Virus record (IMG/VR): IMGVR_UViG_2541047679_000011
DNA: 10,969 nt
Reading direction: 5' to 3' (one strand)
From: a virus
Lineage: Duplodnaviria; Heunggongvirae; Uroviricota; Caudoviricetes
Part shown: positions 1-10,969 of the stretch, one piece after another
Numbering within the stretch: the first letter of the stretch is position 1
Layout of the letters: the number at the start of each line of letters is the position of its first letter
Position numbers and translations under genes: made by a program
The notes under the pieces: generated by a model
The model's database searches: none
Seen by the model: the letters and a program-made list of their open reading frames with translations, nothing else
What the model was told of the DNA's origin: nothing

Positions 1-603
1 GTGCTGATTGGCTATGTAAGGGTATCAACAAATGACCAGAATACAGACCTGCAACGAAACGCTCTTGTTTGTGCAGGATGTGAACAAATATTTGAAGATA
101 AATTAAGCGGGACAAAGACAGACCGACCGGGATTAAAACGCGCTTTAAAGCGCCTTCAAAAAGGTGACACGCTGGTTGTCTGGAAACTGGATCGCCTCGG
201 GCGAAGCATGAAACATCTGATTTCTCTCGTCGGGGAACTACGGGAGCGAGGAATTAATTTTCGCAGTCTGACCGACAGCATAGATACATCTTCTCCAATG
301 GGGCGTTTTTTCTTCCACGTGATGGGTGCCCTGGCTGAAATGGAACGTGAATTAATTGTTGAACGTACACTGGCCGGACTGGCGGCAGCGCGTGCACGGG
401 GGCGCACAGGCGGACGTCGACCGAAGCTGACAAAAGAACAGCATGAGCAAATAGCAAGGCTGATCAAAAACGGGCACGACAGAAAACAACTGGCAATAAT
501 TTACGGCATTGGTATATCGACGATTTATCGTTACCACCCCGCAGGAGAATCAAGCGGAACAATAGAGAAGAGTCAGGAAACAAATAAATATCCTCCGGCA
601 TAG
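1..603 (+). CDS. Serine recombinase / site-specific DNA invertase, Hin/Gin/Pin/Cin family
   Basis: 200-aa ORF with GTG start at window position 1. The N-terminus MLIGYVRVSTNDQNTDLQRNAL carries the catalytic Ser in the YVRVST motif typical of resolvase/invertase enzymes. The C-terminal helix-turn-helix (QLAIIYGIGISTIYRY) and the 190-200 aa length match Pin/Hin/Gin. Upstream sequence, including any RBS or crossover site, lies outside the window. Confidence 0.9.
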   Translation: MLIGYVRVSTNDQNTDLQRNALVCAGCEQIFEDKLSGTKTDRPGLKRALKRLQKGDTLVVWKLDRLGRSMKHLISLVGELRERGINFRSLTDSIDTSSPMGRFFFHVMGALAEMERELIVERTLAGLAAARARGRTGGRRPKLTKEQHEQIARLIKNGHDRKQLAIIYGIGISTIYRYHPAGESSGTIEKSQETNKYPPA

Positions 604-615
604 CCGGAGGTTTTT
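592..615 (+). terminator. Perfect 8-bp GC-rich hairpin followed by a T5 run, overlapping the invertase stop codon; either an intrinsic terminator or the IS200 subterminal hairpin
   Basis: Read directly: cctccggc (592-599), loop ata, gccggagg (603-610), then ttttt (611-615). The invertase TAG (601-603) sits in the loop/stem. It cannot be decided from sequence alone whether this hairpin belongs to the host gene or to the IS200 right end. Confidence 0.45.
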
Positions 616-691
616 CAAATGCGCCTATAAGGCTCTCTTACCAGCCGCGCCCTAACAGGCGCACACGATCTGACATTTGCATCCAACTTCG

Positions 692-1150
692 TTACTTACG
701 GCCCGTAAACGGGCTGCCCGGATAGGGAATCGATAACTGCTCTCCCATTTTATCCTCTTCAAGCTGGTGCTTTATGTAATCCTGTATCTTCGCCGTGTTC
801 TTACCCACCGTATCGACGTAATACCCTCTGCACCAGAACTCCCTGTTCCTGTATTTGAATTTCAAATCACCAAACTGCTCGTAAAGCATCAGACTGCTTT
901 TCCCTTTCAGATATCCCATAAAGCCTGATACGCTCATTTTGGGCGGGATCTCCACAAGCATATGGATATGATCTGCACAGCATTCAGCTTCCAGAATCCG
1001 TACACTTTTCCACTCACACAGCTTTCTCAAAATACAGCCTATTGCTCTACGCTTCTCTCTGTAGAACACCTGTCTTCGGTATTTTGGCGCAAATACTATG
1101 TGATATTTACAGTTCCATCGGGTGTGCGCTAAGCTCTTTTCGTTCCCCAT
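692..1150 (-). CDS. tnpA: IS200 transposase TnpA (Y1 HUH transposase, 152 aa)
   Basis: Translation MGNEKSLAHTRWNCKYHIVFAPKYRRQVFY...HIHMLVEIPPKMSVSGFMGYLKG...YVDTVGKNTAKIQDYIKHQLEEDK shows the HxH (HIHMLV) motif and the catalytic Tyr region typical of IS200 TnpA. The track ORF 692-1201 starts 17 codons further upstream at a poorer start; ATG at 1148-1150 is preceded by an AAGGGGG SD (minus strand). Confidence 0.9.
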   Translation of the reverse strand: MGNEKSLAHTRWNCKYHIVFAPKYRRQVFYREKRRAIGCILRKLCEWKSVRILEAECCADHIHMLVEIPPKMSVSGFMGYLKGKSSLMLYEQFGDLKFKYRNREFWCRGYYVDTVGKNTAKIQDYIKHQLEEDKMGEQLSIPYPGSPFTGRK

Positions 1151-1151
1151 T

Positions 1152-1229
1152 GGGACCCCCTTTTGATTTCTTGTTTGACACTTGCAGTTGCCAGACCGCA
1201 AGGTGTTTTAACAAATCAAAAGGGGTTTT
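1152..1229 (-). promoter_or_regulatory. IS200 tnpA 5'UTR stem-loop that can sequester the ribosome-binding site
   Basis: On the minus-strand mRNA, upstream CCCCUUUU (plus-strand 1218-1229 aaaaggggtttt) is complementary to AAAAGGGG, which overlaps the SD just 5' of the tnpA ATG (plus-strand 1152-1165). IS200 translation is known to be repressed by such a 5'UTR structure. Confidence 0.45.
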
Positions 1230-1262
1230 AATAACTAGCTCAAAGCTGAAAGCTTTCCGGAA

Positions 1263-1285
1263 CCCCCAGCCTAGCTGGGGGTTTT
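1263..1285. other. Perfect palindrome hairpin at the IS200 left end (8-bp stem, 3-nt loop) with a T4 run on the plus strand
   Basis: cccccagc (1263-1270), loop cta, gctggggg (1274-1281), then tttt (1282-1285). This is consistent with the subterminal hairpin / transcription-blocking structure described for the IS200 left end; the assignment rests on position relative to tnpA. Confidence 0.5.
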
Positions 1286-1297
1286 CTGTGCACAAAT

Positions 1298-1326
1298 AAC
1301 CGCTAATCTGACCATTAGCGGTTTTT
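1298..1326. terminator. Bidirectional intrinsic terminator between IS200 and the tail operon end (downstream of U)
   Basis: Perfect 10-bp stem aaccgctaat (1298-1307), loop ctgacc, attagcggtt (1314-1323), followed by ttt(g)t on the plus strand and preceded by an A-rich run, which gives a U-tract on the minus strand. It lies 8 nt downstream of the U stop codon (1335-1337, minus). Confidence 0.55.
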
Positions 1327-1334
1327 GTGTTAAA

Positions 1335-1829
1335 TCAGAACAGCCCTTTAACTGAACTGGCCGCGCTGTTAAGAGATGATGTCACCTTATCTTTGAAGCC
1401 GGACAGCATATCGCTGAACGATGAGGATTGCAGGCGCTCCCGCAAATCCTCATCACAGCGTTCAAGGGTCAGTGAAAATTCTATCTTTTTCGCCTTACCG
1501 TAGCGATCAAACTCGGAACGGGTCGTATTCGTTTCAGTCAGCACATACATGCCGTAAATCTGCCCGACACCATCAATCAGAGGCCAGGGGCGTCCTGTAT
1601 ATGCCTGCGTGGTCAGCAACGAAAGCGACACTTCGCCACCTGTAATTTCAGGATAAAGCACGCCAGAAAGCACAATGCGATCATCACCTGCACCGATATA
1701 CTGCCAGCTTGCTGAGCGGTTAACGCGTTCATTTTTCACATGCCGCCAGCTTTTGTTTTGCTGTAACTGCTGATGCGGCAATGTGCGCAGCTCAAAAACA
1801 AACATGCCGTAGATCATCATCATGGCCAT
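1335..1829 (-). CDS. Phage tail protein, P2 gpU-like
   Basis: 164-aa ORF immediately downstream of the tape measure gene, in the P2 FETU order. Size and position match gpU (about 160 aa). Family assignment is from gene order and recalled similarity, not a search. Confidence 0.78.
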   Translation of the reverse strand: MAMMMIYGMFVFELRTLPHQQLQQNKSWRHVKNERVNRSASWQYIGAGDDRIVLSGVLYPEITGGEVSLSLLTTQAYTGRPWPLIDGVGQIYGMYVLTETNTTRSEFDRYGKAKKIEFSLTLERCDEDLRERLQSSSFSDMLSGFKDKVTSSLNSAASSVKGLF

Positions 1830-1835
1830 GACTCC

Positions 1836-4652
1836 TCAATCTTTATCGTAAAAACTGCCACGTCCGGCACGGGCGCGCCGTTCCATCTCTGCCCTGACCA
1901 TTTCACCGACCAGTTTCGCCAGTTCGCGGGGATTCTGCGTAACAACGTTATGCAGATGGACATGAATTTCACCACCAAATCCGGAGGCAACAGGCTCCCG
2001 GTTACGGGAAGTTACAGGAACTGATGCCACTGGCGATCGTATGGCCTCCGCCACCGGGCGGGAGCTGGCCGCAACAACAGGGACCAGCGCCGGAGGCAGC
2101 GGAGCCGGGACCACGGGGGTGATATTAATTGCGGGGGCAGGCTTACTGACCTGCGCAATCTTCCGCTCCTGCCACTCCCCACGAACAGCAAGTGCGCGGG
2201 GCAGGTTCTTAAAGACAATATCGCCGGGGCCAATGCGTTTTTTCGTCTCATCAACCAGCTTACCTGTGTTATCAGCAATTTTGCTGAGTCTGCGTAGCGT
2301 CCCGGTATTGCTGTCTGTGAGCGGTTTGTTGTCTTTGGGTTTATCACCTCCGGTGCCATTGCCATTTTCCACAGGCTTCGGCGGATTGATTTTCGCCAGG
2401 TCCCCCTGAAGCAAGGCAACCTTGTCCTGAAGAATGGCCGCACGCTGTGCGTCTTCGATTTTCTTGCGCGCCCTTTCCGCTTCATCCGGAAGGACGCCAA
2501 GTTTTTCAAGTATCCACGCCAGCGTATCCAGTAGCATTTTTGCAGGTGTCAGAACAAGTTGTAACGCACCGCCAAGAACGTTACCGAATATCTCGCCAGC
2601 ACTGGTACATTTATCCAGCGTTTCCTTGCTGGACTCCATCGGTGACAGCAGCGATTTAAACCAGTTAAACACCAGGCTGATCCCGCTTCCGATTGCGTCA
2701 AAAACAGGACCAAACCGTTCAAAGGTTTCGCGCAACGGGGTCAGCCTTTCCATAATCCCGCTGAACACCCCGGCAAAAAATGCCCTGATGGGATCCCAGT
2801 ATTTCCAGATAAGAACGGCAGCTCCGGCAAGCGCAGCCACGATAAGACCAACCGGACTGAACAGCGCCCCGATAGCGCCTCCCAGTAAAGAAACGGAACC
2901 CGTCACCATTCCCCACAGCGCAGGCAACACCCTGACGACATTCATTGACCGGGTAAGAATGTCAAAACCAAGACGCAGGGTGGCCAGCTTCCCGTAAAGC
3001 ACCCCAATAACCAGCGACAACGAGCCAATCGTTGCAGTCATTGCCAGCAACGCACCGCCTGCTATCAGTAGCTGGCGCGTCAGCACCGGATGGGCCTGCG
3101 CCAGCGAGGTGATTTTTTCAAGCACCCGCGTGAGCCACTGCGTGACAGAACGCAGCGGACCGTCAACCAGATCACTGATGCGAATACGAAGACCTTCCCA
3201 TGCGCTGTCGAGATTTTTCAGGTCCCCATCAAGATTATCGGCCATTACTTTTGCGACGCGATCGGCCTCTCCCCTTGCCCCCTGCAATTCTCTGGTCAGT
3301 TTTTGCAGCTCTCCTGAACCAGCCGCCGCAACAAGCGTCTGCAAACCAACGAACGCCTCTTCTCCGGCGATGTCCTTGAAGAAGGAAACCTGGTCCACCT
3401 GTCCGTATTTTTGTGTCGCCTTATAAAGATCAAGCAGCACATTCTCCATCGGGCGCATTTTGCCTCTGGCGTCAGCAACTGACACTCCCAGCTCTTTCAG
3501 CGCATCAGCCGCAGCTTTTGGCGGTGATGCAAGGCGGGACAGACTTGCGCGCATGGCCGTACCAGCATCGCTTCCGCGAAGACCATTATTGGCAAGCATC
3601 CCGGCCATGGCTGCCGCTTCTTCAAGACTGATACCAAGTTTTGCGGCAACCGGACCGGTATACTTCATGGTTTCGCCCAGCGCGCGTAAATCAGTATTGG
3701 TCCGGGTGAATGCCGCTGTCAGCGTATCGCCAACCCGGTCCATTTGATCGGCTGTCAGGTTGAACTGTGTGAGGATATTGGAGCCTATATCAGCCGTCTC
3801 GCCGAGTTCGACGCCACCTGCCAGCGCCATATTAAGAACACCGGGCAATGCGGCCTGAATGGCCTGCGGAGTAAAACCAGCCATTGCCAGAAAGCTCTGC
3901 CCACTGGCGGCATCACTCGCAGTAAACTGTGTTTCAGAGCCAAGTTTTAACGCCTGCTCACGCAGCGCCTTAAACTGCGGGCTGTTTTTGTCGATTCGCG
4001 TCAGTGCCTGAACGCGGGACATCTCTTTGCCGAACCCGATCGCAGGCTGCAAAAAACGCCCGGCAGCATAGCCGCCCGCCGCTGCCGCACCAATTGCCAG
4101 TGCACCACCTGTTTTCAGTTTTCCCGCTGTTTCCTGCGCGCGCGAATACCGCTCACGCGCCCGCGTTACACGCGCAAGCGCCTGCCGTTCGCGTTCAAGC
4201 TGGTTGTTGTACTGTTCGGTGCGTCTGATGGCCTGCTGGATGGTGTTATCGCTGCCTGTCAGGGAAATGCCGTGGCGTTTCAGCTCTCCGCCAAGCTCCC
4301 GCATTTTTTGAATTTCCCGTGTGCGCGATTCATTCAGGCGTTCAAGCCGGGTGCTTAACTGCTGCATCAGCTTTTGTTGTTTTTCGCTGAGCACTGTACC
4401 CGTGCGTTGTAACTGATTAAGGGCGTTAAGCTGGCGTCGTGCTTTCACGATGCCCGCATCCGCTTTACTGACAGCGTCACGGGCGCGCTCAAATGAACGC
4501 GCCTGACGCTCGAGATTTTTGATCGCCCCCTGCGTTCGCTGGATGGAGTCACCAAACTGCCCCATCAGGCGGCGGGCGTTTTCGGCAGGCCGGGTCAGCC
4601 TGTCAACGGCGCTGAAAGCGACCCGGATATCAAGAGTCTTCATTATCTGCAT
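1836..4652 (-). CDS. Phage tail tape measure protein (P2 gpT-like)
   Basis: 938-aa ORF with a coiled-coil, Q/R/E/L-rich N-terminal half, a central cluster of hydrophobic Gly/Ala-rich helices (LLIAGGALLAMTATIGSLSLVIGVLYG..., AALAGAAVLIWKYW) and a Pro-rich C-terminus, as expected for a tape measure protein. It follows the E/E' pair. An alternative start at ATG 4641-4643 (MKTLDIR) has better SD spacing. Confidence 0.9.
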   Translation of the reverse strand: MQIMKTLDIRVAFSAVDRLTRPAENARRLMGQFGDSIQRTQGAIKNLERQARSFERARDAVSKADAGIVKARRQLNALNQLQRTGTVLSEKQQKLMQQLSTRLERLNESRTREIQKMRELGGELKRHGISLTGSDNTIQQAIRRTEQYNNQLERERQALARVTRARERYSRAQETAGKLKTGGALAIGAAAAGGYAAGRFLQPAIGFGKEMSRVQALTRIDKNSPQFKALREQALKLGSETQFTASDAASGQSFLAMAGFTPQAIQAALPGVLNMALAGGVELGETADIGSNILTQFNLTADQMDRVGDTLTAAFTRTNTDLRALGETMKYTGPVAAKLGISLEEAAAMAGMLANNGLRGSDAGTAMRASLSRLASPPKAAADALKELGVSVADARGKMRPMENVLLDLYKATQKYGQVDQVSFFKDIAGEEAFVGLQTLVAAAGSGELQKLTRELQGARGEADRVAKVMADNLDGDLKNLDSAWEGLRIRISDLVDGPLRSVTQWLTRVLEKITSLAQAHPVLTRQLLIAGGALLAMTATIGSLSLVIGVLYGKLATLRLGFDILTRSMNVVRVLPALWGMVTGSVSLLGGAIGALFSPVGLIVAALAGAAVLIWKYWDPIRAFFAGVFSGIMERLTPLRETFERFGPVFDAIGSGISLVFNWFKSLLSPMESSKETLDKCTSAGEIFGNVLGGALQLVLTPAKMLLDTLAWILEKLGVLPDEAERARKKIEDAQRAAILQDKVALLQGDLAKINPPKPVENGNGTGGDKPKDNKPLTDSNTGTLRRLSKIADNTGKLVDETKKRIGPGDIVFKNLPRALAVRGEWQERKIAQVSKPAPAINITPVVPAPLPPALVPVVAASSRPVAEAIRSPVASVPVTSRNREPVASGFGGEIHVHLHNVVTQNPRELAKLVGEMVRAEMERRARAGRGSFYDKD

Positions 4653-6920: not shown

Positions 6921-7077
6921 AGCTTCAGCCCCTTGTATCCGTTAAATGATTCGGCAACAATCATCACCCACCACGCGCGTAATCTCACCCCTGCGCCGTT
7001 CTCCCGACCCGGCGACAACAAAAAGCAGTAACCCCCTCCGCACGCACATGCGACCATGCCGCACAGGGAGGGAACAG
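6921..7077. promoter_or_regulatory. Divergent FI / D intergenic region; presumed location of back-to-back late promoters
   Basis: 157-bp gap between the divergent start codons of FI (6918-6920, minus) and D (7078-7080, plus). P2 late operons are driven by Ogr-dependent promoters, but no clear TGT-N12-ACA Ogr box was found by eye, so the call is positional only. Confidence 0.3.
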
Positions 7078-8187
7078 ATGACCGATACCACCATGCAATT
7101 GCTCAGTCAGGGCACAGACCCCGTGAAAATGCCGGATTTTGATATTCTCGCGGAGGGTAAAACGCTGTCAGGCGTGGCAGAGCGCCTGATGAGCCTGTCA
7201 CTGACCGACAACCGGGGATTTGAGGCGGACCAGCTCACCATCACGCTGGATGATGCGGATGGTCAGTTGCAGCTACCGCCACGGGGCGCGTGCCTGACGG
7301 TTCTCATTGGCTGGAAAGGAGAACCGCTGACAGAAAAAGGCACTTACATTGTTGATGAAATCGCTCACGAAGGACCGCCGGACAGGCTGACTGTTTCAGC
7401 CAGAAGCGCAGATTTTCGGGATGAATTTAACGTTAAACGTGAGGTGTCCTGGCATGATGTGACCGTTGAGCGTGTGGTATCCGCCATCGCTCATCGGTAT
7501 GGTCTGAAACCGCAAATCAGCGAAATGCTGATGGATATCGAAATCGACCACGCCGACCAGACCGAAGAAAGCGACATGTCCTTTCTTACGCGCATGGCGG
7601 AAATGCTGGGCGCAATCACCACGGTAAAAAGCGGTAATCTGTTATTCATTATGCCAGGCGGTGGCGTGAACGCACAGGGCCAGCCGTTGCCATCGTTCGC
7701 CATTACACGCAGCAGCGGCGATCGCCATCAGTTCCGCATTGCTGACCGCGAGGCGTATACGGGTGTACGCGCCTACTGGCTTGATCTTAATTACGGGAAA
7801 AAGAAAAAAGTCAGCGTGAAACGCCGCAAACCGCCAAAACCCAAAAAGGAGAAAAGCAGTAGCCGTGAAGGTGATTATATGGAAGGCGCGGAAGGCAATG
7901 TGTTTGTGTTACGCAAGACTTATCAGAACGAGCAGGCAGCAAGACGCGCAGCGGCGGCAAAGTGGCAGCAGCTACAACGCGGAGCCGCATCATTCTCCAT
8001 CATGCTGGCACGTGGACGCGCAGAACTCTACCCCGAAATGCATGGCACGGTAACAGGATTTAAAAGCGAGATTGATAATCAGGACTGGATTATTGCGAAA
8101 GCCGAGCACACCATTGATAACAGCGGCTTTACCACGCAGCTTGAGCTTGAAGCAAAAATCCCGGAATGGATAGCAGAAACAGAGTGA
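7078..8187 (+). CDS. Phage late control / tail protein D (P2 gpD family)
   Basis: Translation from ATG 7078 (GGGAGGG SD 6 nt upstream): MTDTTMQLLSQ...PDFDILAEGKTLS...LSLTDNRGFEADQLTITLDDADGQL...GW..., matching gpD-family proteins. The track ORF starting at 6946 adds 44 N-terminal residues with no SD and would occupy the divergent promoter region. Contains an unusual K/R-rich insert (GKKKKVSVKRRKPPKPKKEK). Confidence 0.85.
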   Translation: MTDTTMQLLSQGTDPVKMPDFDILAEGKTLSGVAERLMSLSLTDNRGFEADQLTITLDDADGQLQLPPRGACLTVLIGWKGEPLTEKGTYIVDEIAHEGPPDRLTVSARSADFRDEFNVKREVSWHDVTVERVVSAIAHRYGLKPQISEMLMDIEIDHADQTEESDMSFLTRMAEMLGAITTVKSGNLLFIMPGGGVNAQGQPLPSFAITRSSGDRHQFRIADREAYTGVRAYWLDLNYGKKKKVSVKRRKPPKPKKEKSSSREGDYMEGAEGNVFVLRKTYQNEQAARRAAAAKWQQLQRGAASFSIMLARGRAELYPEMHGTVTGFKSEIDNQDWIIAKAEHTIDNSGFTTQLELEAKIPEWIAETE

Positions 8188-8536: not shown

Positions 8537-10120
8537 ATGGCAAGTAAAGCTAACCTTGTTAATTTGGATGCGATGATTTCAAGAGAGGATTTCTCTGCTC
8601 AATCCGATAATGATTTATCTTTCGAATCTATACAAAATATAGCTATGAGAGATATCGGAATGTTGTCTGGCCTACTCAGAAAACCAGATTTTCAGAGAGA
8701 AACAAATCACTGGACTCCAGAGCAAGTAGTTTCATTACTAAAGAGTTTTGTCACAGGTGATTTAATACCATCCGTGATTTTATGGAAGAGTTCTTTTGTG
8801 TTTGTTATAGACGGTGGTCATAGACTTAGTGTTTTAAGAGCATGGAAAGAAAATGACTATGGTGATGGCACTATATCGCAAAAATTCTTTGGAAATAGTA
8901 TTTCCGGAGAGCAAAGAAAGATCGCACAAAAAACAAGAGAATTGGTTGACTCCACAGTTGGTAAATGGTCTGAGATAGAAAGAAAAATGCAGGATTCTAA
9001 TAATGACCATGATGAGAGTAGAAGGCTTACAAATATTTACGTAAGGGCTTTGCAAGTCCAGTGGGTTAAAGGTGATTCCGATAAGGCAGAAACGTCTTTT
9101 TTCAATATAAATAAAAAAGGTACTCCTTTAGATGAGGTTGAGGAAACTTTACTTAGGCATAGGAAGAAACCTATATCTATCGCTGCGAGAGCAATAATAC
9201 GAGCAGGAAAAGGACATAGATACTGGTCCTCTTTCCCTGAGGATAAGACTAAAAAGATAGAAGAGCTTTCCTCAAATATAAACTCCTCTCTTTTCGATCC
9301 AGACGTTAAATCTCAAATTAAAACACTCGATCTACCTCTGGGTGGCTCACGCGGTGTGAGGTTAGCTCTTGATATCTTAATAGATCTTATGTCTATTTCC
9401 GTGTCCCAGAGCGAAAATTATCAAAAAGAATTGCTTAATCAAATCGAAGATTCAGATGGAAGCGAAACTGTTGTTGTTCTGGAAAAAACCGCAAAATTAC
9501 TAAATTGGATTACTGGAAATGACAAGGGCAGCTTAGGATTACATCCGGCCGTGTATTTTTATAGTGCATCAGGCAGACATGTGAATCCTATGTTTTTAGG
9601 GACGACTCTGTTTATAGCGAAAAAATTAAAATTTAATGATAAGAACTTCTTCAAAAAATTCACAAGTATTAGGTTTAATTTAGAGAAAACTCTAATAAAC
9701 AATAAGTCTATGCTAGCATCGTTAGTGAACAGAGCAGGACATAAGAAAAGAACTGAGTATTACTCTAATTTATTTGAGTCAATGATTGATTTCCTTCTTG
9801 AGGTAAAAAAGAAAGACAAAAGCATGAGTGATTTCAGCCTTACAGAAAGTGAAATACTCCAGCTTGCTCACTTTGAAGGTAATATCCTATCTGGGACAAG
9901 TATCAGCAATGCAACTAAAATTAGTGAGGAAGCGAAGAATGCTGTATTCATTGATACTGCATTAGCTTCAGCAATTACATGTCCTATCTGCCAGGGATAT
10001 TTAGATCCTTCAAAATCTGTCTCATATGATCACATCAAAAGAGTTGCAGATGGTGGTAAAGGTTCGGCAAAAAATACTCAGTTAACTCACCCGTATTGCA
10101 ATATGTCTGTCAAAAATTAG
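8537..10120 (+). CDS. Two-domain nuclease: N-terminal DUF262/ParB-like (DGQHR-type) domain plus C-terminal HNH (His-Me finger) endonuclease motif; GmrSD/BrxU/SspE-like candidate anti-phage defence protein
   Basis: 527-aa ORF with AGGA SD 8 nt upstream. N-terminal motifs KPDFQRETNHW and FVIDGGHRLSVL match the DUF262 signature (xQRxxxW ... DGQQR/DGQHR). The C-terminus CPICQGYLDPSKSVSYDHIKRVADGGKGSAKNTQLTHPYCN is a classic HNH pattern (CxxC...DH...GG...N...H..CN). GC content is about 35-38%, against about 57% in the neighbouring tail genes. Confidence 0.85.
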   Translation: MASKANLVNLDAMISREDFSAQSDNDLSFESIQNIAMRDIGMLSGLLRKPDFQRETNHWTPEQVVSLLKSFVTGDLIPSVILWKSSFVFVIDGGHRLSVLRAWKENDYGDGTISQKFFGNSISGEQRKIAQKTRELVDSTVGKWSEIERKMQDSNNDHDESRRLTNIYVRALQVQWVKGDSDKAETSFFNINKKGTPLDEVEETLLRHRKKPISIAARAIIRAGKGHRYWSSFPEDKTKKIEELSSNINSSLFDPDVKSQIKTLDLPLGGSRGVRLALDILIDLMSISVSQSENYQKELLNQIEDSDGSETVVVLEKTAKLLNWITGNDKGSLGLHPAVYFYSASGRHVNPMFLGTTLFIAKKLKFNDKNFFKKFTSIRFNLEKTLINNKSMLASLVNRAGHKKRTEYYSNLFESMIDFLLEVKKKDKSMSDFSLTESEILQLAHFEGNILSGTSISNATKISEEAKNAVFIDTALASAITCPICQGYLDPSKSVSYDHIKRVADGGKGSAKNTQLTHPYCNMSVKN

Positions 10121-10828: not shown

Positions 10829-10969
10829 ATGTCGCAAAAATCGCTTACGGCCATCACGTTCTGCGTGACGGCAATCCTCATCATCTGGATGCTGCACGGT
10901 TCGCTGTGCGAAATACGGATGAGCTTCTGGGGAGCGGAGTTTGCGGCGTTCTTACAGTGTAAGCAGTAA
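10829..10969 (+). CDS. Hok/Gef-family type I toxin-like small membrane protein (46 aa)
   Basis: Not in the supplied ORF track (under 60 aa). ATG 10829 with AAAGGAG SD 8 nt upstream and TAA at 10967-10969. Translation MSQKSLTAITFCVTAILIIWMLHGSLCEIRMSFWGAEFAAFLQCKQ has a single N-terminal TM helix followed by SLCEIR...E(F)AAF, closely matching the Hok signature (…SLCEIR…REVAAF…). Confidence 0.65.
   Translation: MSQKSLTAITFCVTAILIIWMLHGSLCEIRMSFWGAEFAAFLQCKQ

Follow-up and report, generated by a model that had tools for sequence, protein, structure and literature searches.

A 711-bp IS200C element lies at the 3' end of a Gin-like serine DNA invertase gene in the window, by which we mean the whole stretch of 10,969 nucleotides analysed here, and the reading frame of the invertase runs into the element and terminates within it. 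We propose that a P88/Xuanwuvirus-like (P2-related) E. coli prophage received a copy of IS200C by transposition, with the element joined directly to the 3' side of the T-tract in the gpU intrinsic terminator (minus strand). The invertase gene putatively ends inside the same bidirectional terminator, its AAA TAA being the complement of the T-tract TTATTT, and for this reason the element would cut the invertase at its last codon. Translation now runs into the right end of the element, reads N-K-Y-P-P-A and stops at a TAG in the right-end palindrome; the enzyme most likely still works, the altered tail lying beyond the HTH DNA-binding domain. Taken as a whole, from the insertion at the gpU terminator T-tract to the chimeric end of an invertase that is most likely still active, this account seems to us very likely to be correct. 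The earlier note had placed an IS200 at the 3' end of the invertase gene and suggested that it supplied the stop codon and the C-terminal residues, which is borne out by alignment to SCU-387 and phage P88 with the right end of the element at 583-585; the open reading frame, stop codon, tnpA (692-1150) and hairpins that it had described are all where it put them. The features discussed below are as follows.

1-603, plus strand: chimeric coding sequence of a Gin-like serine DNA invertase, 200 aa (translation against the empty-site allele, domains, alignment to Gin)
583-1293, minus strand: IS200C (711 bp; tnpA on the minus strand), oriented with its right end (RE) toward the invertase and the left end (LE) toward the gpU terminator (comparison with SCU-387, 24 other copies, junctions)
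592-610, no strand assigned: right-end subterminal palindrome of IS200C, a perfect 8-bp stem with a 3-nt loop and a T-rich tail on both strands (fold, IS copies, empty site)
692-1150, minus strand: tnpA, encoding an intact 152-aa Y1 HUH transposase with HIH at residues 61-63 (Pfam, translation, RefSeq annotation of homologous copies)
1160-1283, minus strand: IS200 left-end regulatory region, with the tnpA 5'UTR and its SD-sequestering stem-loop, the region opposite art200 and the LE hairpin (Rfam STnc490)
1263-1281, no strand assigned: left-end palindrome of IS200C, corresponding to IS200 nts 12-34 (fold, PMC4513863)
1294-1299, plus strand: displaced native last codon and stop codon of the invertase (AAA TAA, K195-stop; alignment to the P88 and SCU-387 empty sites)
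1298-1326, no strand assigned: predicted native bidirectional intrinsic terminator of the invertase (plus strand) and the convergent gpU (minus strand), a 10-bp stem with T-tracts on both strands (terminator scan, fold)
1335-1823, minus strand: gpU-like tail protein gene, convergent with the invertase, the terminator of which is the insertion target (Phage_P2_GpU, E = 5.5e-39; SCU-387 annotation)

The insertion point was located by comparison with IS-free homologues, as the earlier note had proposed, and this gave the empty site, a native TAA stop codon and a native length of 195 aa. An IS-free version of this prophage is present in the chromosome of E. coli SCU-387, which blast matches in two pieces with a reported identity of 100.0%; compared base by base, the two differ at 2 positions in 10,258 bp and the window is longer by exactly 711 bases. 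The central block is likewise missing from phage P88 (Peduoviridae, Xuanwuvirus) and several relatives, in which the invertase and tail genes match at about 97.5% identity, and the empty site of P88 is the same as that of SCU-387. Among further IS-free relatives whose matches cover the flanks in two pieces are 500465-2 and the O145 and O103 prophages; the empty site was checked base by base in P88 and SCU-387, and that of the others is taken from these two-piece matches. In SCU-387 the empty site reads ...GAGAAGAGTCAGGAAACAAAATAACCGCTAATCTGACCATTAGCGGTTTTT, and the junctions in the window read ...CAGGAAACAAA / TAAATATCCTCCGGCATAGCCGGAGG... on the left and ...GGGGGTTTTCTGTGCACAA / ATAACCGCTAATC... 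on the right. Since AA stands on both sides, the boundary may slide by 2 bases and the insert is 583-1293, 584-1294 or 585-1295; a search for the exact termini, by comparing six and then 28 copies and by the published numbering of IS200 (nts 12-34; PMC4513863), left this 2-base ambiguity in place. AA/TT flanks are found on both sides in every copy compared (six, then 28), which would fit either a 2-bp duplication or an element carrying TT at one end, the two being the same in sequence. On this alignment the gene is split between codons 194 and 195 or within codon 195, and whichever boundary is taken, the right end precedes both the 592-610 hairpin and the stop codon and is not downstream of 615, where the earlier note would have taken both to be host-derived. 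With only 2 mismatches between the window and its empty-site relative, the allele is recent. The opposite direction of change, with the 200-aa form ancestral and the 195-aa form produced by precise excision, was considered and rejected as the primary reading, given that the empty site is common to distinct phages and strains and the filled one is limited to three contigs that are nearly the same.

The invertase open reading frame (1-603) begins with GTG, stops at TAG (601-603) and encodes 200 aa, with a Resolvase domain at residues 3-135 (E = 1.4e-50, Pfam) and HTH_7 at 138-181. Thus an N-terminal catalytic domain with the active-site serine is followed by a C-terminal HTH, the YVRVSTNDQ motif is the same as in Gin, and Gin of Mu (PDB 4m6f/3uj3) aligns with residues 1-183 (E = 4e-101); among the closest known members of the Din family (Gin/Hin/Pin/Cin), Gin of Mu and the P88 invertase, it is Gin to which the catalytic domain is almost identical, and HTH_7 is also present. 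A Fis-dependent recombinational enhancer is likely to lie in the 5' part of the gene, in view of an identity of about 94% with Mu gin over the 5' 380 bp. In the empty-site allele of SCU-387 the native protein has 195 aa and ends ...SQETK*, whereas that of the window has 200 aa and ends ...SQETNKYPPA*. Judged against this allele, the native portion comprises residues 1-194, and codon 195 (AAT, N) through A200 and the TAG belong to the right end of IS200C. The element thus replaces the last lysine and the stop codon by six IS-encoded residues (N195-K-Y-P-P-A200) and an IS-encoded stop, and while the P88-type native allele has 195 aa, the window allele owes the final six of its 200 residues to the element. 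The native AAA-TAA now stands at 1294-1299, directly before the hairpin of the native terminator, with the element between it and the rest of the gene. Depending on the frame, a stop is reached after 0-1, 6 or 24 codons from the right end of IS200C, and the invertase enters in the 6-codon frame. The earlier note had also explained the slightly greater length of the protein by the insertion; this holds for the five extra residues but not for the rest, as the native protein already reaches 195 aa, and that of a relative, Citrobacter phage Shae_phiSM, is 199 aa long.

The inserted element itself is, by its sequence, an ordinary member of IS200C (IS200 group, IS200/IS605 family). It has a single Y1 HUH open reading frame of about 150 aa, a length of about 0.7 kb, subterminal palindromes at both ends and no terminal inverted repeats, its ends AATAAATA... 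and ...GTGCAC not being inverted repeats of each other. The Y1_Tnp match in TnpA covers residues 11-129 (E = 1.7e-37, Pfam), and Rfam STnc490, the IS200 5'UTR/art200 family, matches 1160-1283 over its full length (145.6 bits, E = 1.7e-30). All 24 full copies extracted are exactly 711 bp, and 23 of these 24 are 98.6-99.9% identical to the copy in the window. Matches to the element occur in 3,330 of 5,426 E. coli genomes, where RefSeq annotates an "IS200/IS605-like element IS200C family transposase". The window copy thus shows no difference from IS200C of Escherichia coli in the element itself, its location alone being particular. IS200 of Salmonella is 707 bp long instead of 711 bp, with about 91% nucleotide identity to a Salmonella copy, and shares the LE hairpin, the SD-sequestering 5'UTR stem-loop and the antisense art200/STnc490 (PMC4513863). 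By analogy with its family, IS200C would move as single-stranded DNA ("peel and paste") by means of TnpA; single-strand excision and integration are described for the IS200/IS605 family in two reports (PMC5027513, PMC2806898).

The attribution of the stop codon depends on the origin of the hairpin at 592-610. This hairpin is followed by TTTTT and folds as RNA at -15.5 kcal/mol (z = -5.6), and the new stop codon of the invertase (601-603) lies inside the palindrome, in the loop and the 3' stem. A hairpin with five T's right at a stop codon resembles a normal intrinsic terminator, and it might be argued that it is the invertase's own, in which case the 200-aa frame would be wholly derived from the host or phage and IS200 would begin downstream. 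Yet both the hairpin and the last 19-21 bases of the frame are absent from the empty sites of SCU-387 and P88, and the hairpin is present in every IS200C copy at unrelated loci (24 of the 24 full copies), which refutes this reading and leaves it practically no chance of being right. The stretch AATAAATATCC... is common to all IS200C copies at unrelated loci, and AATAAATATCCTCCGGCATAGCCGGAGG... stands at the same end of the copies in ynaJ-uspE (E. coli 042), pta-yfcC, ybhC-ybhJ and yfeD-gltX, as well as at the IS200C end in a lambda-like ninB-ren spacer and in many prophage contigs. Comparison of copies thus identifies the hairpin as the right-end palindrome of the element, one of the two origins that the earlier note had left side by side, and not as a terminator of the invertase.

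The insertion has also changed the set of predicted terminators at this locus. The palindrome at the left end (1263-1281) has a stem of 8 bp, or of 10 bp when the adjoining A-T pairs are counted, with TTTTCTGT behind it (-20.7 kcal/mol), and the native site forms a 10-bp stem at 1298-1323 followed by the T-run TTTGTGTT (-15.7 kcal/mol, z = -5.9). Between 400 and 1500 a simple scan counted 4 terminator-like sites, where shuffles gave 1.1 +/- 1.1, and flagged the first and third of the plus-strand hairpins (592-610 and 1298-1323); the one at 1263-1281, identified by eye and by folding, was missed because its stem, when extended, takes up two T's from the tail. In the empty site the native hairpin was flagged as a terminator on both strands, after the insertion on the plus strand only: the minus-strand T-tract TTATTTTGTTT is the target of the element and is now cut to TTATTT, so that the T-tract of the gpU terminator has been shortened. 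Terminator activity is predicted for the three hairpins here and has been demonstrated for the LE hairpin of Salmonella IS200 only, in which the hairpin at nts 12-34 is a bidirectional terminator that shields tnpA from outside transcription (707-bp element; Ellis et al. 2015, PMC4513863). The right-end palindrome with TTTTT is probably now the first terminator of the invertase transcript, and we infer that such transcripts would meet the RE hairpin with its five T's, then the LE hairpin and then the native terminator, all as predicted here. All three hairpins in tandem are real, as the earlier note had observed, but its suggestion that they strongly block transcription toward the tail genes did not stand: because the tail genes are convergent and a native bidirectional terminator was already present, the three would add redundancy and not a new block protecting those genes. 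Read-through from gpU, on the other hand, would enter the LE hairpin of the element, the documented role of which in IS200 is to stop impinging transcription (PMC4513863).

Although the protein is altered, the change at its C-terminus is probably neutral. The altered tail begins 14 residues beyond the end of HTH_7 (181) and 12 beyond the end of the alignment with Gin (183), and the C-terminal region differs in length and sequence between relatives (195 and 199 aa), that of Shae_phiSM having the unrelated tail ...HPVGDIQTEETTGQTQENEN; because the change starts past both the HTH and the Gin alignment and the tails of relatives are unrelated, the enzyme is expected to be active. The contrary view is that the element inactivates the invertase, through the C-terminal change or through the altered 3' end and mRNA stability, and that the tail-fibre segment is frozen in one orientation. 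In Hin, the polypeptide that follows the recognition helix contacts the minor groove (Hin-hixL structure), so that C-terminal changes can matter, and the new stop codon does lie inside a strong hairpin. We nevertheless judge inactivation improbable, since the change starts only at residue 195, 14 residues past HTH_7 and outside the Gin alignment, since relatives carry unrelated tails in proteins of 195 and 199 aa, and since the assembly of one contig with this allele breaks exactly at inversion-site branch points, suggesting that both orientations were present.

The evidence for the last point comes from the region upstream of the invertase. The contig OZ040913.1 (locus L010), one of three that encode the 200-aa protein, does not differ from the window over the 6,603 bp compared downstream of the invertase start, and its upstream system consists of a tail-fibre gene (716 aa), a pair of tail-fibre assembly genes in opposite orientations and an alternative fibre C-terminus. 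Gix-like 26-bp crossover sites, TTCTCGTAAACCGAGGTTTTAGATAA, stand in inverted orientation at 3239-3268 and 5921-5950 of L010, outside the window. These inverted repeats flank the alternative tail-fibre C-termini and the assembly-protein genes, as is characteristic of the Din family; the invertase genes of Gin and P88 likewise adjoin a tail-fibre invertible segment with gix-like inverted repeats. In the draft scaffold KE698800.1 (L011), which carries the chimeric allele, an assembly gap begins after ...ACCTCGGTTTAC and sequence resumes at GTAAACCGAGG..., and these gap edges are the exact points where the two gix-like repeats stop being identical, that is, the inner edges of their perfect cores. 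A culture containing both orientations would produce such branching, which hints that inversion continues with the chimeric allele, although another Din-family invertase in the same genome could catalyse the inversion in trans.

The position of the element behind the gpU terminator conforms to a pattern shared by other IS200C sites. Under a rule requiring a stem of at least 7 bp that ends 2-7 nt upstream of LE on the tnpA-sense strand, a GC-rich hairpin (stem 7-13 bp) precedes LE at 25 of 28 distinct sites, and TTWTT at positions -5 to -1 abuts LE at all 28, its final two T's being invariant. The same rule was satisfied in 0 of 14 RE flanks, in 2 of 25 segments 300 nt away and in 7.7% of shuffles; at other TTWTT sites in the same loci the hairpin was found in 14.8% (binomial p = 4e-18). 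The upstream gene is co-oriented with tnpA in all six annotated loci (uspE, pta, ybhJ, gltX, ren and gpU). From the hairpin and TTWTT at the left end and this shared orientation, we infer that IS200C sits directly behind the predicted intrinsic terminator of a co-oriented gene. IS608 and ISDra2, which belong to the same transposase family, also lack terminal inverted repeats and have a short conserved motif abutting the left end (TTAC in IS608, a pentanucleotide in ISDra2, compared with TTWTT in IS200C), and the right end of IS200C terminates in a similar motif (TTATT), like that paradigm. Unlike the IS608 paradigm, however, IS200C sites also have the GC-rich hairpin 2-7 nt upstream of the motif (25 of 28), and to our knowledge such a hairpin is not a stated requirement for IS608.

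An association with terminators was already known in outline. A survey found terminator-like sequences over-represented just upstream of insertion sequences, most strongly for IS200/IS605, and read the association as a niche that limits transposase expression (PMC13548323). When we sought a defined IS200 target sequence or terminator targeting in the literature, this 2025/26 niche study alone was found to report terminators upstream of IS200/IS605; with the association published in 2026, the nucleotide-level spacing is what is added here. How the spacing arises may be explained in two ways. The right end of IS200C, on the tnpA-sense strand, reads CCTCCGGCTATGCCGGAGG then ATATTTATT and is terminator-like itself, and we tentatively propose that IS200C may be guided to its targets by more than a short motif, intrinsic terminators being recognised because they resemble this right end in structure (GC-rich hairpin, T-rich tail of 2-7 nt, cleavage or joining after TT). 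Alternatively, purifying selection alone may leave IS200C near terminators, with no preference of the transposase and with the position seen here as a chance survivor; intergenic positions after terminators are harmless, and the niche reading given in PMC13548323 points the same way. This second explanation is itself possible yet doubtful, as selection would not fix the distance to the nucleotide, while the observed spacing is tight (2-7 nt from the foot of the stem) with TT always directly at LE, a hairpin accompanies only 14.8% of the other TTWTT sites in these loci, and RE shows the same architecture of hairpin, T-rich tail and TT. If mimicry of the right end holds, IS200C would be a terminator-seeking transposon, and now and then, as in the window, its insertion would alter the final codons of a gene that shares a bidirectional terminator with a convergent neighbour and has its stop codon there. 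Recognition of terminators as right-end mimics, which we offer as a hypothesis with selection for harmless sites as its main alternative, is the sole idea of some novelty here; the case is otherwise a real but ordinary transposon insertion, a standard IS200C at a standard Gin-like invertase gene in a P88-like prophage, that would not surprise a specialist.

The case illustrates why IS200 is usually harmless, landing just behind terminators, and it indicates that where convergent genes share a bidirectional terminator the same tendency can trim the opposite gene at its 3' end. Of 18 sites for which both flanks could be compared, a long open reading frame clearly enters the element in the window alone, locus L046 being a possible second. 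The base-level pattern of hairpin, 2-7 nt, TTWTT and left end sharpens the statistical association published in 2026 and could guide experiments on target choice. The case matters mainly for annotation: what is listed as a 200-aa "recombinase family protein" is a chimera of phage and IS200C sequence, the true native gene encoding 195 aa.

The chimeric allele is rare. Its junction was absent from 5,426 complete RefSeq E. coli genomes, in which no place covered at least 80% of window positions 480-700. The top partial RefSeq matches that extend into the flanks were set aside as independent IS200C copies at other terminators, the A-rich and hairpin flanks of which align by chance. The exact 200-aa protein is encoded in three other NCBI contigs, which are near-identical. 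Genes for GmrSD, ogr and hok are also found in the prophage, the IS-free relatives of which adjoin ihfA.

A GC-rich hairpin followed by a T-tract is abutted by the left end of IS200C at 25 of 28 independent insertion sites, as compared across loci L003, L004, L007-L009 and L012-L051 together with window 1286-1326, with a spacing of 2-7 nt between the stem and the left end, and the motif preceding IS200C at these left-end sites is TTWTT. The hairpin and T-tract at IS200C left ends are predicted to be the intrinsic terminator belonging to the upstream gene, which is co-oriented. The right end of IS200C itself has the same layout as these left-end sites, namely a hairpin, a T-rich tail and TT.

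When the right end (window 583-660, plus strand) is entered from outside, the reading frame decides whether a stop codon is reached after 0-1, 6 or 24 codons. At locus L046, a 111-codon ORF has a TAA that was apparently taken from IS200C, and this locus may be a second instance of an IS-supplied stop codon. Within the left end, Rfam STnc490 matches window 1160-1283 on the minus strand, which is the tnpA-sense strand, and the match includes the left-end hairpin. In the literature, STnc490/art200 is described as an antisense RNA of 90 nt directed at the 5'UTR of tnpA; what the Rfam model appears to capture is the sense strand (5'tnpA-like) or else a region of greater length.

The chimeric invertase of the window also occurs in draft scaffold KE698800.1. 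This scaffold contains a run of N (L011 1931-5925, corresponding to L010 3264-5925) bounded exactly by the perfect-core inner edges of both gix-like inverted repeats, and this coincidence suggests that the tail-fibre segment was present in both orientations in the sequenced culture. In the isogenic, IS-free prophage of E. coli SCU-387 (L005 1-3000), the annotation lists the tail-fibre and assembly genes that lie upstream of the invertase as pseudogenes, frameshifted or partial; in L010, which carries IS200C, these genes are intact. Prophage decay in some lineages is independent of IS200C.

Other prophage genes in the window include:

6946-8187, plus strand, gpD-like ORF of 413 aa (Pfam Phage_GPD)
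8537-10120, plus strand, GmrSD-type restriction endonuclease gene of 527 aa (Pfam GmrSD_N)
10829-10969, plus strand, Hok/Gef family toxin gene at the window end

Phage_GPD covers only residues 146-393 of the gpD-like ORF (profile positions 64-304), and in identical prophages RefSeq annotates this gene for the last 267 aa only, with a small overlapping pseudogene. Divergence of the N-terminal part is possible, and so is damage to the gene. The GmrSD-type gene, placed between the gpD-like gene and ogr, looks like defence cargo of the P2-like prophage. In IS-free relatives the Hok/Gef toxin gene lies about 300 bp from ihfA-pheT, and its vicinity to ihfA-pheT marks the border between prophage and chromosome.
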